From the NCBI GenBank assembly GCA_965243025.1, contig CBDETY010000003.1:640001-704000 (forward strand): a DNA stretch of 64,000 nt. Reading direction: 5' to 3'. Positions 25,741 through 32,383 of the stretch are shown one piece after another. The notes under the pieces are model-generated. The model was not told where the DNA came from and did not search any database. It saw nothing but the letters and a program-made list of their open reading frames with translations. This stretch comes from Candidatus Latescibacterota bacterium (GTDB lineage Bacteria; Latescibacterota; UBA2968; UBA8231). The first letter of the stretch is position 1. Each line of letters opens with the position of its first letter. A program made the translations under genes and the position numbers.

Positions 25741-25915
25741 GGGTTCCTGTAATCCAAGTGACGAAAGTCCCGCAGACCGCCCCGCGCATCGCCGGCCAAC
25801 ACCAAATCTGCAGTCTGCGCGACGACAATCAGCTTGAGGAAAGCACCGCTTTCCGTCGTGCGCCGGAAATTGAAAATGGCTCCTGAATGCCGGATTACCT
25901 GGAGTCGTTGACGCC

Positions 25916-26107
25916 GTGCCCAAAGTATCGGATGCGATTCGCAGAATCGAAGATGATGGTTGGCGACAGGTTCGCCACAAAGGCAGCCATCGCCATTACA
26001 AGCATCCTTCCAAGCCAGGCCTTGTAACCATAGCCGGGAAGCCCAGCAAAGACTTGTCCCCAAAAACATTTCGCAGCATCCTAAGGCAAGCCGGCCTGTT
26101 GCAATAG
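25916..26107 (+). CDS. hicA: HicA family mRNA interferase toxin
   Basis: 63 aa; GW..VRHKGSHRHYKHPSKPGLVTI..L...T..SILRQAG. Confidence 0.92.
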   Translation: MPKVSDAIRRIEDDGWRQVRHKGSHRHYKHPSKPGLVTIAGKPSKDLSPKTFRSILRQAGLLQ

Positions 26108-26117
26108 AGGTGCATCA

Positions 26118-26342
26118 ATGAACCCAACGACCATGAAAGTCTATACCGTAGTCTTCGAACGGACGGGCACCGGCTATTCCGCTTACTTGCCCGATTTGCC
26201 CGGTTGCGTAGCCGCCGGCGATACCAAGGAAGAGACCGAACGACTGATAGCCGAAGCCGTCTCCGAACACCTGGACATGCTCGCAAACGAAGGGATCCCT
26301 ATCCCACAACCCGTCGATGCAGTCCTTGTCTCCCCCGCCTGA
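26118..26342 (+). CDS. hicB: HicB family antitoxin (short form)
   Basis: YSAYLPDLPGCVAAGDT.EE....EA...HL..L...G..IP. Confidence 0.92.
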   Translation: MNPTTMKVYTVVFERTGTGYSAYLPDLPGCVAAGDTKEETERLIAEAVSEHLDMLANEGIPIPQPVDAVLVSPA

Positions 26343-26460
26343 CTAAAAAATAGGAACTTATACCGGTGGGTTACGGAAGCTGATTTCTTAGCTTTCAGCT
26401 TCCCGGCGTGAGAGCCGAAAAAAAGGGCCTCAGGGAAACACTTTGAAGGGGAGATGTCCT

Positions 26461-26760
26461 ATGGCCGCTTACCAGACATTTCATCAGGCATATGATGAAG
26501 CCATTCTGAGAATCGGATGGAAACAGATACAGAATGGAGCAGCCGCATTTCAGGAGGTGGAATTAGAGATAGAGTCCGTATTAGTTTCAGAACTACGATC
26601 TCATAAGAAGGCTCGTTTTATCGAGGTCAATAATGCGTTAATGATTCAGCTGACTGATGACGGGAAAAACGCCTTTATTGCATTGGCAATGGAGCGGAAA
26701 CAATCAGCTGATCAGTACACAGAAAAGAGCTTGATGGAGGCTCTCTTACTCACCTCCTGA
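26461..26760 (+). CDS. Hypothetical protein (transposon cargo)
   Basis: 99 aa ORF with GGGGAG RBS-like sequence upstream. Confidence 0.55.
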   Translation: MAAYQTFHQAYDEAILRIGWKQIQNGAAAFQEVELEIESVLVSELRSHKKARFIEVNNALMIQLTDDGKNAFIALAMERKQSADQYTEKSLMEALLLTS

Positions 26761-26958
26761 TTCTTCCTCACCTTCCGTGCCGCTTCTGTCACCTTGTATC
26801 CGCTCGATCTCTAACAGCTTCAAGCAGAGATCGATACGTTGATTAAGACAGTTACTCGGATCCGCGATGAACTTTTTCAGATCCATCTTTAGGCTGAGTA
26901 CTGCCGCATCTGTGCTGAGTGACGGTTGTTCTTTTTTGCTGGTTTCCACTTGAATCAT
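26746..26958 (-). CDS. Hypothetical protein (transposon cargo)
   Basis: 70 aa ORF preceded by AAGGAG. Confidence 0.5.
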   Translation of the reverse strand: MIQVETSKKEQPSLSTDAAVLSLKMDLKKFIADPSNCLNQRIDLCLKLLEIERIQGDRSGTEGEEESGGE

Positions 26959-26972
26959 TCTCCTTGAGCGTG

Positions 26973-27007
26973 AAAAACGTCCCTCCGCGCAGGAGCAGAG
27001 GGGCGTT
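26973..27007 (-). terminator. Probable intrinsic terminator
   Basis: Minus strand AACGCCCCTC..GAGGGACGTT stem running into a T tract, just after the 27035 stop. Confidence 0.55.
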
Positions 27008-27034
27008 GGTGTTTTCGATTCGCGTCAGGTTGAC

Positions 27035-27286
27035 CTATTTCAGGCGCCGGTAGAAGCCATCCTGAATCATCTCGATTTTACCCTGACGTGGAAGTTGTCG
27101 AGTCAAAACTTCTGAAAGAGAATTATATGGGTTCTCTGCTCTTGATTTTGTCTTTTTCAAAATCCTGTCAAACCGAACCCTGACCTTGAGATCGGCAGCA
27201 TAGAAAGTGCACCCGCAGGGTACGAAACTCACGATTTCATCCCATACGGCTTGTTTCCATGAGATTCTCTTTTCAGACTGGCTCAT
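27035..27286 (-). CDS. Small winged-helix-like protein (resembles DpnI C-terminal wH domain)
   Basis: AGGAGG upstream; SWKQAVWDEI..F..NP..SLSEVLTRQLPRQGKIEMIQDGFYRR. Confidence 0.55.
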   Translation of the reverse strand: MSQSEKRISWKQAVWDEIVSFVPCGCTFYAADLKVRVRFDRILKKTKSRAENPYNSLSEVLTRQLPRQGKIEMIQDGFYRRLK

Positions 27287-27334
27287 CTTGCTCGGTTCCG
27301 CCTCCTTCCCGGTTCCGGTTCGGCGAATCCGCTC

Positions 27335-27350
27335 ACCGGTCATGACCGGT
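27335..27350. promoter_or_regulatory. Perfect 16-bp palindrome, candidate operator
   Basis: ACCGGTCATGACCGGT in the intergenic region upstream of the wH-like gene. Confidence 0.35.
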
Positions 27351-27384
27351 CAGGGATCGCCAGCAAGCCGGTGGGGTTCCCCCT

Positions 27385-27624
27385 CTATGTAGATATGGAT
27401 ACGGAAAGGAATGATCCAGATCGGCTTGGATGTATTATCAATAAATTTGCTTCATGCGGTTTTCGATCTATGTGATGATTCCACTCATCGATTCCGGACT
27501 TGATGGTGGCCGGGGTCAGGAGGCGCCAGCTTTTCTGGTCAGCCACCATCTCGCGGAGGGAATTGCTCTTCCTTGACTTGAAATCTTCCCCTCCTACCAG
27601 AATTTCAGCATAACAAAGGTCCAT
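27385..27624 (-). CDS. Hypothetical protein (transposon cargo)
   Basis: 79 aa ORF within a tightly packed minus-strand run. Confidence 0.4.
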   Translation of the reverse strand: MDLCYAEILVGGEDFKSRKSNSLREMVADQKSWRLLTPATIKSGIDEWNHHIDRKPHEANLLIIHPSRSGSFLSVSIST

Positions 27625-27929
27625 CTAAGCCACTCGGATAGGGATTTTCGTCTAGAAAGACGTGGGTTAGGGGATAGTATGTTAGGTTCCTCGCATAGCC
27701 TACGGATAAGACTCATGTCTTTTGTGATCGTCTCATTGAGGAGGTGTAATGATTCCCTAGGCATACCCGATCCATTATCTTCCGAAGCTAGGCCAATGGT
27801 GTTTCTAAGGTGAGATTGGATGTCCTCAGTTGACATGCCTCTGCTCTTAAAGTCTCTGGCACACATTAGAGCAACGATAATTCTAAGAGAGTATATGTGT
27901 GCCAGTAGCTGATGTTCTTGACATGACAT
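27594..27929 (-). CDS. Hypothetical protein (transposon cargo)
   Basis: 111 aa ORF starting 3 bp after the upstream stop. Confidence 0.45.
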   Translation of the reverse strand: MSCQEHQLLAHIYSLRIIVALMCARDFKSRGMSTEDIQSHLRNTIGLASEDNGSGMPRESLHLLNETITKDMSLIRRLCEEPNILSPNPRLSRRKSLSEWLRWTFVMLKFW

Positions 27930-27932
27930 ATA

Positions 27933-28187
27933 TCATACCTCTGGTATGTTAAATTCATCCACTATATTCTGTACTGGAATGTCTCTGTTAATACACCACT
28001 CAACGGCCGATTGCGTTGTGAAAAGAACTTTCCAACTATTCGTCCTATCTTGAGTCAAATAATAGATGTTTCCTCTGGATCGGTACCGAAATAGCTTTTC
28101 GAGTTTGGTGGAACATGTGTCTATGGGTTCCGCATTCTCGGTGTTAAAAGCCATCTGTCCGTCAATAGTCTCTCCGATTATTTTCAT
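27933..28187 (-). CDS. Hypothetical protein (transposon cargo)
   Basis: 84 aa ORF with GAGGGAG RBS. Confidence 0.6.
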   Translation of the reverse strand: MKIIGETIDGQMAFNTENAEPIDTCSTKLEKLFRYRSRGNIYYLTQDRTNSWKVLFTTQSAVEWCINRDIPVQNIVDEFNIPEV

Positions 28188-28196
28188 AATACTCCC

Positions 28197-28445
28197 TCAG
28201 TCTCGTAGATCCGGGACCACAGCGGCGACTCTCGCCGCTATTCCAGTCTGACGGCCCAGAGCGGATAGCTCGCTCAGGGCCTTCTGGCGTTTCTGCTCCG
28301 CCCGATTGCAAGACATGGCTACCTGATGGATTTCTTCATGGTATGGACGCGAGAGGAGATGGGCGAACTCCGGCTTGCGGTTAGTGTCATGCACAATCCA
28401 CGACCGCGCTCTTCCAGTTACCCGGTAGCTAACCTGAATCGCCAT
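28197..28445 (-). CDS. Hypothetical protein (transposon cargo)
   Basis: MAIQVSYRV.., AAGGA upstream, overlaps the previous stop. Confidence 0.45.
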   Translation of the reverse strand: MAIQVSYRVTGRARSWIVHDTNRKPEFAHLLSRPYHEEIHQVAMSCNRAEQKRQKALSELSALGRQTGIAARVAAVVPDLRD

Positions 28446-28632
28446 CAGCCGGTCCTTTCGATCCTTCTGAGGTGTCATCTGGCCGATTGGGCTTACGCAG
28501 CGACGGATCTGGCGGGTTGGCGGTGGCGAAGATGGCCTGAGCCAGCTCCTCCGGGGTGCAGTCGATCTTCAGGCGCCACTCAGGGCGGCCCTTCTGCTTG
28601 GCGCTGTCGTCTGAATCTGCGCGGTCAGTCAT
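28429..28632 (-). CDS. Small hypothetical protein with KID.TPEELA.A.F motif
   Basis: 67 aa, KGRP..LKIDCTPEELAQAIF. Confidence 0.55.
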   Translation of the reverse strand: MTDRADSDDSAKQKGRPEWRLKIDCTPEELAQAIFATANPPDPSLRKPNRPDDTSEGSKGPADGDSG

Positions 28633-28653
28633 GCTCGGAAATTACCCCCCGGC

Positions 28654-29484
28654 TCATTCTGGGTCAATTACGAAAGCGTCGTAGGAGACGGGCAGGCTGA
28701 CCCGCTGGCCTACGGCCTGAAGATGCTCTATTCCATTAGAAGGTTCTTCTGTGAATCCGAGCGGCTCCCACATGGCTGCGGAGTCCCGGACCATGATGAC
28801 GGCCCGCCCGTCAGGGGCCAACATCATGTGGATCTTGTCCACGTCCTTTGCGCTCAGGAGTCCGTCATGGCCGTGCAACACGAGGATCTGGTCGTACGGC
28901 TCCGTGGGATACCAGTGACCGAATGAGCAGTTGTGCAGCCGATCTGCGAATAACGGGTTCCTGCTGGCGCACACGCGGAGCATGTTTTCCGACAGGTCGA
29001 TTCCGCAGTAGTTCTGGGGTCGGATGTCCGGGCAGTTTCTCAGTAACCAGCCGGTGCCGCAGCCTACGTCGAGGATGCGCTGGCCGGTCAGATCGCCCAA
29101 CAGGGCCAGGAGGGGCTCGCCTCCGTGGTCATTAACCATTGCCTGATCGTACTGGTGGGCAACCTCATCATATGGCGTCTCGTAGTGCATCCGGGCGCGA
29201 TTCAGGATGGTGGTTTTGGCTGGCGGCCATCCCATCGTCCAGTAGTAGTGCCCGTTCAGCGTCAGGCTGCGGTAGTACTGGCGATTACCGTACCTGCGCC
29301 GGTAGCCGTAGGTCTGGACCATCTCCACGACTTCCTCGAACTCGTCCTCCGGCCAATTCACCCTGACGGTGTAGAAATGAGGTTTTTCGGGTATCGTCTT
29401 GGCGAATCGGAACGAGGCCGCGCCTACCAGCTCGGCCACCCGGAAAAGGCGCTCATGACTAATGGTGGGATCATTATCGAACAT
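28654..29484 (-). CDS. Class I SAM-dependent methyltransferase with an extra aromatic-rich N-terminal domain
   Basis: YDEVAHQYD, ILDVGCGTG, GIDLSENML, LAPDG; N-terminal FAKTIPEKPHFYTVR..YYWTMG..ILNRA. Confidence 0.8.
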   Translation of the reverse strand: MFDNDPTISHERLFRVAELVGAASFRFAKTIPEKPHFYTVRVNWPEDEFEEVVEMVQTYGYRRRYGNRQYYRSLTLNGHYYWTMGWPPAKTTILNRARMHYETPYDEVAHQYDQAMVNDHGGEPLLALLGDLTGQRILDVGCGTGWLLRNCPDIRPQNYCGIDLSENMLRVCASRNPLFADRLHNCSFGHWYPTEPYDQILVLHGHDGLLSAKDVDKIHMMLAPDGRAVIMVRDSAAMWEPLGFTEEPSNGIEHLQAVGQRVSLPVSYDAFVIDPE

Positions 29485-29509
29485 GGCTGATTCCTTGATA
29501 GGGGAAGGA

Positions 29510-30091
29510 CTACCCGGCCAGCAGAATGCCCAGATAACTGCCGTATCGGATCAGTCCATCGGGGTCCGTGATGACGATCTTGCCATCGGAAATTTCACAC
29601 GTCGGGGCCGTCTGGAAGGACGAGGCGAACAGCTCGCCCCAGGCACCAAACTCCATCCAGTTGGAGCCGCCTACATCGTCGTACCCGGTTACGTCGACAA
29701 TGTCCTCTGAGACCCTGCTGCGTTCCAGATAGACGCCGAGGATATTGTCTTCCGAGAAGTTTTCGTTCGTGATGGTCCAGGATCGGGCCCCTCGACTGTT
29801 CCCGGAACCCGCGTGAAGTCCTACTTCGATGAAGGCGAACAGATTCCCAAAGGTAGTGGTAGTACTGCCGGTATCGACCGCTACGGTGTCGTAAACCGTG
29901 ACGGTGTTTGTGTCTGGATTATCGCCTTGGTAGACGACAGTTTCACCGGTGATATTGATCACCACACAGGCGGTGGTATCGGCGGCTTGTTCGGCGGTGG
30001 TCTTGGGAGAGGTGGCCGGGCCCATCGGGCCCTCGGGGCCCTGACAGGCCGACAGCAGGTAGGCGGCGAGCAGGATGGCTGAATACTGCAT
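29510..30091 (-). CDS. Lipoprotein with short collagen-like GXY motif
   Basis: Lipobox LLSAC followed by QGPEGPMGP; AAGGAG RBS. Confidence 0.75.
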   Translation of the reverse strand: MQYSAILLAAYLLSACQGPEGPMGPATSPKTTAEQAADTTACVVINITGETVVYQGDNPDTNTVTVYDTVAVDTGSTTTTFGNLFAFIEVGLHAGSGNSRGARSWTITNENFSEDNILGVYLERSRVSEDIVDVTGYDDVGGSNWMEFGAWGELFASSFQTAPTCEISDGKIVITDPDGLIRYGSYLGILLAG

Positions 30092-30150
30092 GGTCCCTGT
30101 CTCCTTGAGGCGGGTGGGTTGACCCCGGCTCCGCTGTGGGGCCGGGCCTT

Positions 30151-30292
30151 GTCAAGCCTACACGCCAAGAGACAGCGGGAAGGATCCTGCTATTCGCCAG
30201 CTGAGAGGTAGCTAGCCCCCCAGCTCGGATGGTACGGCTGTTGTATTCACAGGAGACCCGACATCAGGGACCTCCTGACGCATAGACTTGAC
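30151..30292 (-). ncRNA. Candidate 142-nt rod-shaped structured RNA, family unknown
   Basis: Minus strand 5' GUCAAGUCUAUGCGUCAGGAGGU pairs with 3' GUCUCUUGGCGUGUAGGCUUGAC over 23 contiguous bp (16 Watson-Crick + 7 G-U); inner CGGG/CCCG and UCCUG/CAGGA; apical AGCUGGGGGG/CCUCUCAGCU. Confidence 0.55.
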
Positions 30293-30380
30293 GGGTGGTA
30301 ATTTGCAGCCTGAGCGGCTGGCCATCAAGTCAATTCTGCGCTAATTGCTTATTCCAGCTTGTGTTAGGTGGTTGATCTCG

Positions 30381-31547
30381 TCAGATCGCGATCCCCCGCT
30401 CGCCCCCGGTCAGCTCGTCATATCGAAGACGCTTTCCGGTCATACCTCGGGCGAGAACCACCATCATCTCAATCGTGTCCTTGTCGCGGATGTTATGACG
30501 GCCGGCGAACTCGTTCAGGTATCGCTGCAGGTGCTTGAATGACATACGGAAGAAAGTACCTCCATAAGCCCGTTTCAGCACCGCCCAGTATCCCTCGGCG
30601 GAGTTGGTATGCGCCATGCCCCGGACGTATTCCCCGACACCGTGATTCACGGACTCATGGTTGGGGAGCCCCTTGTAGCCGTGGTGCTGATCGGTGTACT
30701 TCTTGGCATTCGGCTTGACGTTCGCCATCACCTGAGCCTGAAGCGTGATGGCCGTCACGTCAGGCACCGTTACGGCCCGGATTTCATTGGTTTTCCGATC
30801 CACGATTGCGACGACCGCCTGTTTGCCCACCGTGCCGCGCCCTTTCCGTAGCTTCTTGCGAGCGTGCTTGTTGGGCTCCTTGCCGCCGAAGTAGCTCTCG
30901 TCAATTTCCACCGGACCTTCCATCAGCTCGCCGGTGTTTTTCACGAATGCTTCCCGGATGCGGTGCATCAGGAACCAGGCACTCTTGTACGTGATTCCAA
31001 GGTGACGGCGTACCTGTATGGCGCTCACACCTCGCAGATGAGTGGTCACCAGAAACAGGCCGATTGCCCACTTCTGGTACCCCAACTTGGAGCCCTCCAT
31101 CACGGTACCCTTTTTCACCGAGAAAAACTGATGACAGTCCCGACACCGATACGGCATTTTCGGGTGCTTCGAAACCGAGGTGCTGACCGATCCGCAGGCC
31201 GGACAATACCGCTGGTCATTTGGCCACCTCTGCTCCTCGAACCATTTCTCCGCCGCCTTGTCGTCAGGGAACATGCGCATCAGTTCAGGGAGAGTAATCC
31301 CCTTGCGGTAGGCCCGTCCGGGTCCCTTGGAGCTATAGTTTGTCGGAAACTTGCTCATATCGGTATATGCTCGCTCATCGTCGTAATAAATATCAGCCAT
31401 TATCCGCTTTTTGTCAAGGTCTAAGTCGTTGTTTTCAAAGAGTTTAGGCTTAAGGAGACGGTGAGGGATCGCCCTGGTGGGCTCTGGCGGTACACCCGGT
31501 GAATTGGGCTTGACAACTCGTTTCTTAGTCCTGAACTTAGTACGCAT
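30381..31547 (-). CDS. IS1595-family DDE transposase (alternative start at 31358)
   Basis: Zn ribbon CPACG..YRCRDC, TYKSAWFLMHRIREA, VEIDESYFGG, YTD..GY, VNH..EYVRG.AHTNSAEGYW, HLQRYLNEF. Confidence 0.93.
   Translation of the reverse strand: MRTKFRTKKRVVKPNSPGVPPEPTRAIPHRLLKPKLFENNDLDLDKKRIMADIYYDDERAYTDMSKFPTNYSSKGPGRAYRKGITLPELMRMFPDDKAAEKWFEEQRWPNDQRYCPACGSVSTSVSKHPKMPYRCRDCHQFFSVKKGTVMEGSKLGYQKWAIGLFLVTTHLRGVSAIQVRRHLGITYKSAWFLMHRIREAFVKNTGELMEGPVEIDESYFGGKEPNKHARKKLRKGRGTVGKQAVVAIVDRKTNEIRAVTVPDVTAITLQAQVMANVKPNAKKYTDQHHGYKGLPNHESVNHGVGEYVRGMAHTNSAEGYWAVLKRAYGGTFFRMSFKHLQRYLNEFAGRHNIRDKDTIEMMVVLARGMTGKRLRYDELTGGERGIAI
31389..31417 (-). promoter_or_regulatory. Possible sigma70 promoter for the shorter transposase form
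   Basis: TTGACA-N17-GATATT, about 30 bp upstream of ATG 31358. Confidence 0.35.
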
Positions 31548-31648
31548 AACGCCCTCCTTACTGTAGGTGGGTGGAGGTCAGCAAAAAGCTCATCCCGCGA
31601 ATCGAGAGTGGCTTTCTGCTGACTGTGGATGCGAGAAGTAACGGAATC

Positions 31649-31688
31649 AGCCGATCTGGTCGTCGTCAGCGACCTGATCGGCTTTTTT
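31649..31688 (+). terminator. Intrinsic terminator not preceded by a plus-strand CDS
   Basis: AGCCGATC-T-GGTCG-loop-CGACC-T-GATCGGCT followed by TTTTT. Confidence 0.65.
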
Positions 31689-31780
31689 CGTGCTTCTCGT
31701 CGAAATTCACATACAATATACATATCCCGCTGGGTTTCCGCAGGGGGCGGGATACTTCCACATATGACTGGGTACTGAAA

Positions 31781-32254
31781 ATGGATGCTCTCAAACCCTT
31801 TAGCGATGTCCTCGTTTCGCTACTGCCCGAATCCGATTCAGGCAAAATAATCTGGCTGATTGTTTTCGGTCTTTTCGTCTTGATTGTAACTGGACGTCTG
31901 AAATTGGAATGGATTGGACAAGGGATTCTATGGATCGTACAAGTCGTTATACGGATTGCAAAACACTTTTGGAGCCAAGCACAGAACAGGAAGGAACGAG
32001 AACGGATCAGGCGTCAACAGGCACGGGATAGTAGGGAACAACAACGGATCAAGCGTCAATATTGTTCAATTGGAAGACATTTCTTCCAAGGGATAGAGGG
32101 GATTAGGACTGTGACTTTTACTTGTAGATTCTGTCGGATAGAAAAGAAATTTGGCGAAATCGAATTTGATGAAGATTTTGAGTGGTGTTCCTATGGCCTT
32201 GAGGGGTCCGGGTGGGGTACATTGAAAGACCATGATGCCACCAAGGGTAGCTGA
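31781..32254 (+). CDS. Membrane protein with charged linker and C-terminal Cys/His cluster (transposon cargo)
   Basis: TM IIWLIVFGLFVLIV; R/Q-rich helix; YCSIGRH..TCRFC. Confidence 0.6.
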   Translation: MDALKPFSDVLVSLLPESDSGKIIWLIVFGLFVLIVTGRLKLEWIGQGILWIVQVVIRIAKHFWSQAQNRKERERIRRQQARDSREQQRIKRQYCSIGRHFFQGIEGIRTVTFTCRFCRIEKKFGEIEFDEDFEWCSYGLEGSGWGTLKDHDATKGS

Positions 32255-32383
32255 ATACCTGTGGGCTGTTAATCCGGAAAATCGACCATCTGAGCAGGGT
32301 AACATCAAAGCCAAAAGCTAAGAGTCATTCACCCGTAACCCTCCGGTATAAGTTCCAAAAAATAGGACAAAGCCAGGTCGCCG

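Follow-up and report, generated by a model that had tools for sequence, protein, structure and literature searches.

The window analysed here comprises 64,000 nucleotides of contig CBDETY010000003.1 (assembly GCA_965243025.1, positions 640,001 to 704,000, forward strand) of a Candidatus Latescibacterota bacterium, and contains a complete transposon of the IS1595 family at positions 26353-32356. The element transposes as one unit and its cargo is modular. It also carries an RNA, supported by covariation, whose three helices exclude one another and which lies at a constant position ahead of genes for exported proteins. As a whole, the element is probably an autonomous passenger-carrying insertion sequence (tIS) with exchangeable cargo, in which a two-state leader RNA precedes a lipoprotein-methyltransferase module.

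Transposition of the 6,004-bp element as one unit

The element is delimited by the following features, given in window coordinates with TIR for terminal inverted repeat and TSD for target site duplication.

26345..26352, plus strand: left TSD, AAAAAATA; the empty allele of run X6 joins 26345 to 32357
26353..26376, plus strand: 24-bp TIR downstream of the transposase
26386..26395, plus strand: subterminal 10-mer TCTTAGCTTT, kept at the matching end of a relative in genome G001
32314..32323, minus strand: subterminal 10-mer
32333..32356, minus strand: 24-bp TIR upstream of the transposase
32357..32364, plus strand: right TSD, AAAAAATA

A preliminary description had placed the element at 26345..32364. 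These ends are exact, but they include the TSDs, and the element proper consists of the 6,004 bp between them. The TIRs match at 23 of 24 positions, confirming the single mismatch described earlier, and their outer 14-mer GGAACTTATACCGG occurs twice in the window compared to an expected 0.01. The subterminal 10-mer TCTTAGCTTT, also seen in the preliminary description, is present near both ends and is probably a second transposase-binding site. The AT-rich 8-bp target is duplicated perfectly on insertion, and its left copy begins 2 bp beyond the hicB stop at 26342, as had been stated. The element ends read GGAACTTAT and may resemble the consensus of the ISNwi1 group. The GC content of the element is 53%, compared to 65% for the genome.

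A second copy in the same genome (G000:C3:1271162-1277165) is 100% identical over all 6,004 bp and is flanked by its own TSD, CACTTTTA, which differs from AAAAAATA. This copy splits an MMPL-family gene. In G001, which belongs to the same genus, the MMPL flanks abut to the base with an open reading frame, representing the empty allele of the second site. For the window site, a single contig of run X6, from another study, provides the empty allele, with a depth of 2.9 and 1 difference in 638 nucleotides of the left flank. The search for empty sites suggested in the preliminary description was thus successful at both positions. At the window site, G001 contains hicAB and about 90 other bases and no element, and G002 lacks both the element and hicAB. 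Because of the empty alleles, and since G001 and G002 lack the element at this site, the insertion is recent and polymorphic; its recent age, claimed earlier, is further supported by the identical second copy with a TSD of its own. In run X2, possibly the source sample, the element has a depth of 21 compared to about 12 on its flanks, which fits two copies.

The complete identity of the two copies could also be explained by an assembly artefact or a segmental duplication of the host. Beyond the TIRs, however, the copies are no longer identical, their 8-bp TSDs differ, and one of the two interrupts a conserved gene. Empty alleles are known for both sites and refute this explanation, which we regard as hardly credible. 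We conclude with near certainty that the whole 6,004 bp moves as one unit. A scan of metagenome contigs with the TIR pattern returned nine matches, which we set aside as chance because none of the nine carries a transposase or cargo match.

Around the element, the hicAB pair (25741-26345) is itself accessory, being absent from G002 and from contigs of runs X6 and X8 and present in G001. Another stretch of low GC content in the window lies at 14000-17000 (54-61%).

Transposase, relatives and modular cargo

Between the TIRs, we annotated the following features, apart from the structured RNA (ORF, open reading frame).

26461..26760, plus strand: orphan ORF of 99 amino acids with a Shine-Dalgarno-like site; PHROG match only at E 0.006
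26746..28478, minus strand: six short orphan ORFs (70, 102, 79, 111, 84 and 93 amino acids), putative genes
28429..28632, minus strand: ORF of 67 amino acids, member of a small family that recurs close to the downstream ends of IS1595 relatives (tblastn)
28654..29484, minus strand: two-domain protein of 276 amino acids, with an uncharacterised N-terminal domain and a class I S-adenosylmethionine-dependent methyltransferase domain (Pfam)
29510..30091, minus strand: predicted lipoprotein of 193 amino acids with lipobox LSAC, the first gene behind the RNA, starting 49 nucleotides after the RNA core
30381..31358, minus strand: IS1595-family DDE transposase, 325 amino acids from its likely start; frame open from 31547
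31389..31417, minus strand: sigma-70-like promoter TTGACA-17-GATATT ahead of the transposase start, a consensus match only
31560..31710, strand not assigned: non-coding region preceding the transposase gene, with 80% conservation in the G001 relative
31781..32254, plus strand: ORF of 157 amino acids that encodes a single hydrophobic segment and contains a 42-bp tandem repeat; in G001 this slot holds a Panacea antitoxin and a partner gene

The only transposase of the element matches NF033547 with 174 bits (cut-off 75), PF12762 in its catalytic domain with 115 bits (cut-off 27), and PF12760 in its N-terminal zinc ribbon with 32.4 bits (cut-off 25.4). It features two CxxC motifs, VEIDE, YTD and NxxExxWxxLK in an open reading frame. 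The DDE domain and the zinc ribbon, together with the 24-bp TIRs and two different 8-bp TSDs, assign the element to the IS1595 family and bear out its earlier description as an intact member. Likewise, the internal position reported for the transposase, with 4.0 kb to one element end and 0.8 kb to the other, holds for the ORF 30381-31547 (minus strand); the likely start, ATG 31358, is 1.0 kb from the element end. The two copies and the empty alleles suggest that the transposase acts on both TIRs. In the region of the putative transposase promoter, sigma-70-like sites are no more frequent than in shuffled sequences. The conserved non-coding stretch contains a 22-bp hairpin with a T-run on the plus strand and a terminator-like site on the minus strand.

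Relatives bounded by TIRs, a further prediction of the preliminary description, exist. Among the best 20 new loci of 49 phylum matches listed, 18 are bounded by TIRs and 17 have an 8-bp TSD; two of the 20 are copies of one 9,817-bp element. The 17 distinct elements and six further ones (L027, L028, L046, L044, L045 and L049) make up a set of 23 relatives ranging from 1,788 to 9,817 bp, with a median of 3,291 bp. Only one of the 23 is larger than the window element, which is thus the second largest of 24 delimited single-transposase elements. The closest relative among the searched genome contigs, L042 (Candidatus Latescibacterota), has a transposase that is 76% identical. Compared to plasmid records, the top-ranked of 449 matches are only 36-39% identical, and all are under 60%. 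The 9,817-bp element belongs to G044, where its two copies (L082:8511-18327 and L083:565-10381) have different TSDs and contain only the 5' half of the structured RNA, adjoining one TIR.

In addition, three two-armed IS1595 transposons in the same genome measure 34.4, 40.4 and 44.9 kb and are bounded by TIRs and 8-bp TSDs (G000:C3:1304677-1339122, 6017644-6058067 and 1941107-1986021). The preliminary description had called the window element unusually cargo-rich; with relatives of up to 9.8 kb and these two-armed transposons of 34-45 kb, this is better expressed as the high end of a range. Behind each of seven related IS1595 transposase genes (G000:C3 near 879222, 953045, 1024440, 1325678, 1956966, 4258550 and 6033007) lie three short ORFs, the same in every case, and a conserved hairpin; no pair of TIRs and TSDs was found within 10 kb of these genes.

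The cargo is exchanged in modules, as the suggested comparison among relatives revealed. A broken relative in G001 has one end, the transposase, the RNA, the lipoprotein and the methyltransferase in common with the window element. Upstream of its transposase, unlike the window element, it carries the Panacea antitoxin and its partner gene, and the cargo is therefore modular. The 157-amino-acid ORF accordingly occupies a swappable slot. Among nine chosen ORFs scanned, the cargo of relatives includes restriction-modification, Mom-family and Panacea genes.

About ten passenger ORFs had been counted in the preliminary description. Approximately 11 are present, but only three, the methyltransferase, the lipoprotein and the 67-amino-acid ORF, are supported as genes by homologues. 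The 67-amino-acid ORF has tblastn matches in L044, L045, L046, L050, L064 and L025. The methyltransferase has about 80 two-domain homologues and a structure model with a pLDDT (predicted local distance difference test) of 90. Fold searches against the PDB returned only generic methyltransferase folds; these hits are filled by the methyltransferase domain and barely probe the N-terminal domain, and no Atlas match was obtained for the N-terminus. The model aligns with a stand-alone viral protein of 93 amino acids over 89 columns with a root-mean-square deviation of 1.5 Å, a match that probably reflects the N-terminal domain. In 82 aligned proteins, this domain (29170-29484, minus strand) features invariant H, Y, W, M and N residues. 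The lipoprotein has nine relatives among 50%-identity representatives, and its nearest Atlas cluster is a weak match to 'Lipoprotein family protein' (0.93). No Pfam or NCBIfam family matches the 99-amino-acid ORF, and homologue searches were empty for the 84-amino-acid ORF and for the 3' 83 amino acids of the 102-amino-acid ORF. The DNA of the 2-kb block of short ORFs (26400-28480) was found in none of 70 other family genomes. The earlier notion of phage-like small genes is hardly supported, as the PHROG matches of the small cargo ORFs do not go below E 0.0048 in a scan of 14 ORFs.

Passenger-carrying IS1595 elements such as MTnSag1/tISSag10 and tISCpe8 are described in excerpts of PMC8101967, PMC5704250 and bioRxiv 2021.05.26.445724. 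The window element resembles them, as far as these excerpts go, in its single IS1595 DDE transposase with a zinc ribbon, TIRs of about 25 bp starting with GG, an 8-bp TSD, and passenger genes inside the TIRs. It differs in its size of 6 kb, in an internal transposase flanked by cargo on either side, in the absence of a recognised resistance gene, and in its structured leader RNA. Methyltransferase and lipoprotein genes lie inside one TIR pair, and the whole 6,004 bp is duplicated. The element is a probably autonomous, fairly large tIS of the IS1595 family, well evidenced but ordinary. A literature search found no publication on Latescibacterota transposases in sponges.

A structured RNA before exported-protein genes

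The RNA sits behind the transposase and ahead of the lipoprotein and methyltransferase genes. Its elements are listed below.

30141..30262, minus strand: RNA core of 122 nucleotides with P1, P2 with an AAUACAA/GAAUA internal loop, a tip hairpin and a P3 region
30272..30292, minus strand: 5' leader arm of helix P0, 21 nucleotides, complementary to 30151-30171 with five G-U pairs
30151..30171, minus strand: 3' arm of P0, inside the core
30124..30146, minus strand: predicted hairpin H4 on the downstream side, in which the 3' strand of P1 takes part

The core matches Rfam small RNA (sRNA) sRNA-Xcc1 (RF02221) over its full length with 21.4 bits, below the cut-off of 53. Five of 15 copies match at 20-28 bits and none of 20 further loci does. 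As the RNA remains below the RF02221 score but shares its core, it is a distant relative and a variant rather than a member. No Rfam C4 or isrK match was obtained for the copies (E up to 5 or 10). The preliminary description had spoken of RNAs in the cargo. One structured RNA holds up, but the other Rfam matches in the element (Acido-1, ceN109, PyrR208 and PhrS) lie far below cut-off at chance level, and the stretch resembling Acido-1 is not repeated elsewhere in the genome or in the loci examined.

In an alignment of 15 copies, 93% of the cells in the P1, P2 and tip structure are paired, and 10 of 21 pairs show two-sided changes. None of 500 shuffles scored as high, and slid registers reached 31-56%. 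The most conserved letters are the unpaired loops. The structure of the two-state leader RNA is predicted with high probability.

P0 is formed by a leader of about 20 nucleotides, starting some 30 nucleotides before P1, that is complementary to a stretch just before the 3' strand of P1. P0 crosses P1 and so excludes the conserved P1 fold. H4 competes with P1 as well because it uses the 3' strand of P1, and does so in all 53 copies. The minimum-energy fold of the full transcript contains P0 in 40 of 53 copies and P1 in one, while that of the bare core contains P1 in 46. The leader is copy-specific: the best partner was its own in all 15 training copies (-32.5 vs -15.6 kcal/mol) and in 30 of 38 held-out copies (-27.7 vs -14.6 kcal/mol), the latter drawn from 136 RNA matches. 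The exceptions include three tandem copies and at least two with a near-identical twin in the set. In tandem copies (L107, L110 and L118), the 3' part of the upstream copy replaces the leader. In 30 of 38 copies, the sense strand gives the stronger leader pairing. In the same test, true sRNA-Xcc1 scored 0 of 15 and pattern-picked viral copies 5 of 37. We set aside P0 as a DNA repeat resembling a miniature inverted-repeat transposable element, since the conserved P1 lies outside the arms and the pairing favours the sense strand.

A promoter-like motif directly precedes the leader in 37 of 53 copies; of the control windows, 31 of 583 contain one. At least 46 of 53 copies have NCC after P1, and U occupies position -1 in 33, a pattern suggestive of RNase P-type 5' maturation. 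An ORF with a ribosome-binding site starts 31-62 nucleotides behind the RNA in 38 of 53 copies. By our own heuristic, 35 of these 38 ORFs begin with a hydrophobic signal-like stretch and 18 have a lipobox, compared to 0 of 12 behind sRNA-Xcc1. The genes behind the RNA share this export-signal property (35/38) and no common sequence.

A profile built from eight copies found the RNA inside 7 of the 17 distinct elements, partially in one more, and in none of the flanks. Twelve strong matches in 54 sources (946 kb) all fall in IS1595 elements, which are broken in L022 and L024. With 49 candidates scored per genome, model R1 yielded 126 matches in 31 of 71 family genomes, with up to 14 per genome. 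Two of five outside genomes also matched. In the class of G155, counted without G202, only 1 of 121 genomes matched, and therefore none of those holding true sRNA-Xcc1. The 49 scanned ORFs that neighbour the RNA in 13 best-per-genome loci lacking an IS1595 transposase within 7 kb are mostly metabolic or of unknown function. A literature search found no publication joining a structured RNA with IS1595 elements, its coverage being main texts and motifs catalogued in Rfam. Other copies in the same genome are as follows.

G000:C2:301-427: on an 11-kb contig
G000:C3:325789-325912: beside a transposase that looks IS1-like by eye
G000:C3:1954217-1954336: near another IS1595 element
G000:C3:3026706-3026830: before a secreted-protein gene

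Several observations weigh against a transposon-borne two-state leader. The structure was drawn from the same sequences on which it was tested, and kin are not independent. When the 3' flank is included, removal of the leader still leaves P1 as the fold of minimum energy in just 1 of 53 copies, and with H4 present P1 costs 12.8 kcal/mol on average; P1 would therefore need a helper or kinetics. The window copy has a good -35 and no clear -10 before the leader, as judged by eye. Predicted access to the ribosome-binding site is more open with P0 in 25 of 38 copies under a model whose P0 constraints were partly mis-indexed, and more open with P1 in 24 of 38 under a second model. No consistent downstream target resembling seqC or a2b2 emerged in 15 copies, in a search within 1.5 kb for ungapped runs of at least 9 nucleotides that would miss short split targets. 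True sRNA-Xcc1 copies mostly lack the leader duplex. Furthermore, an IS1595 transposase lies within 7 kb of only 5 of the 20 best-per-genome matches, and the RNA is not specific to these transposons.

Proposed mechanism and comparison with known RNAs

We postulate that both TIRs serve as substrates of the DDE transposase and that the unit is inserted whole at AT-rich 8-bp targets, which would be duplicated in the process; the chemistry would be that known for the IS1595 family. Modules of cargo are exchanged to either side of the transposase gene. In a fresh transcript, the first 20 or so nucleotides would pair with the 3' domain of the same RNA, forming P0, and H4 would form; the alternative, conserved P1 fold would require both to be broken. 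The P1-closed core may be excised to yield a small RNA, in analogy to C4 and sRNA-Xcc1. This release is suggested because sRNA-Xcc1 was mapped as a discrete 88-nucleotide RNA (excerpts of PMC2996969), C4 is matured by RNase P (excerpts of PMC5320573), and NCC follows P1. Acting in trans, the released core would then bind the leader of transcripts newly made from its own copy and block P0, refolding the 5' untranslated region of the exported-protein gene in a copy-specific feedback like that of P4 CI/seqA or IsrK. Leaving aside whether the effect is on or off, we consider this trans-acting mechanism plausible, at slightly less than an even chance.

The RNA could instead act purely in cis, with a protein or small molecule binding the AAUACAA/GAAUA internal loop or the tip loop and tipping P0 and H4 into P1. 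Such a switch, with no small RNA in trans, would agree with the conservation of unpaired loops, with the help of about 13 kcal/mol that P1 needs, and with downstream genes that share an export signal (35/38) but no sequence, as expected for a signal-sensing leader. However, the leader arm is copy-specific, which fits an address for pairing in trans, although the same pattern arises by drift of a helix acting in cis, and the related sRNA-Xcc1 accumulates as a discrete RNA in the excerpts of PMC2996969. We regard the cis-acting switch as rather unlikely. A non-regulatory module for processing or stability, in which a portable promoter, a cleavable tRNA-like body and a 5' mRNA hairpin are constitutive and P0 only chaperones folding, appears improbable. 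It would account for the inconsistent predictions at the ribosome-binding site and for the many copies among ordinary metabolic genes, as relics would be, but it leaves the bias to exported proteins unexplained and is at odds with the retention of all three mutually exclusive helices.

Capture of a phage or satellite remnant by the insertion sequence is a very unlikely origin of the cargo. The antirepressor-type phage genes behind true sRNA-Xcc1 copies and the viral protein matching part of the methyltransferase model would speak for such an origin. The small cargo ORFs, however, have no convincing PHROG match, and no phage with the same gene order was seen in the searches run. On viral contigs, the longer-RNA pattern has one match compared to at least 114 for the sRNA-Xcc1 pattern, two patterns that differ in strictness.

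Returning to the two-state leader acting in trans, we tentatively propose that the variant may constitute a distinct RNA family, a portable and self-addressed leader for exported-protein and lipoprotein genes. Each leader of about 20 nucleotides would serve as a private address read in trans by its own processed core, giving up to 14 switches per genome that do not cross-talk. IS1595 cargo transposons would disseminate this switch together with exchangeable cargo for surface proteins and would leave copies of it in chromosomes. Should the leader duplex be an address specific to each copy, the copies would form a natural set of orthogonal RNA switches and offer transposons a means of controlling the surface proteins that they deliver.

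The closest known RNA is sRNA-Xcc1, which is usually discussed as a trans-acting virulence sRNA. Both RNAs have a 9-bp P1, an AAUACAA/GAAU internal loop, NCC after P1, and a first ORF about 45-55 nucleotides behind the RNA. They also share a mobile-element setting, as indicated by excerpts of bioRxiv 2025.06.18.660453 and PMC7313666. The longer RNA differs in its core of 110-123 compared to about 80 nucleotides, an extra tip hairpin, a larger P3 and the leader duplex of about 20 bp, and it leads exported-protein genes, whereas sRNA-Xcc1 leads antirepressor or SymE genes. Among 17 hand-chosen ORFs behind sRNA-Xcc1, 12 match Rha, P22_AR_N, KilA-N, ORF6N or Bro-N and two more SymE, so that 14 are of antirepressor type or SymE by Pfam match, in line with the same excerpts of bioRxiv 2025.06.18.660453 and PMC7313666.

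By analogy, the RNA would be a two-state leader of the kind represented by phage P1/P7 C4, P4 CI and Gifsy-1 IsrK. In excerpts of PMC5320573 and PMC4825925, these RNAs share with it a domain complementary to a target in their own transcript, a variable pairing region, alternative folds, and possibly RNase P-type ends; IsrK and P4 CI pair with and refold their own transcripts (excerpts of PMC4825925). The leader of the window RNA is such a complementary target upstream in the same transcript. It is the only target found, in contrast to C4 and CI, which have a second one downstream, and the RNA lies outside a prophage immunity region and controls no antirepressor here. On mobile DNA, sRNA-Xcc1 and its longer relative both precede a gene at a fixed distance, and this suggests that they act as leaders like C4 and CI; the leader RNA thereby bears on the role of sRNA-Xcc1.

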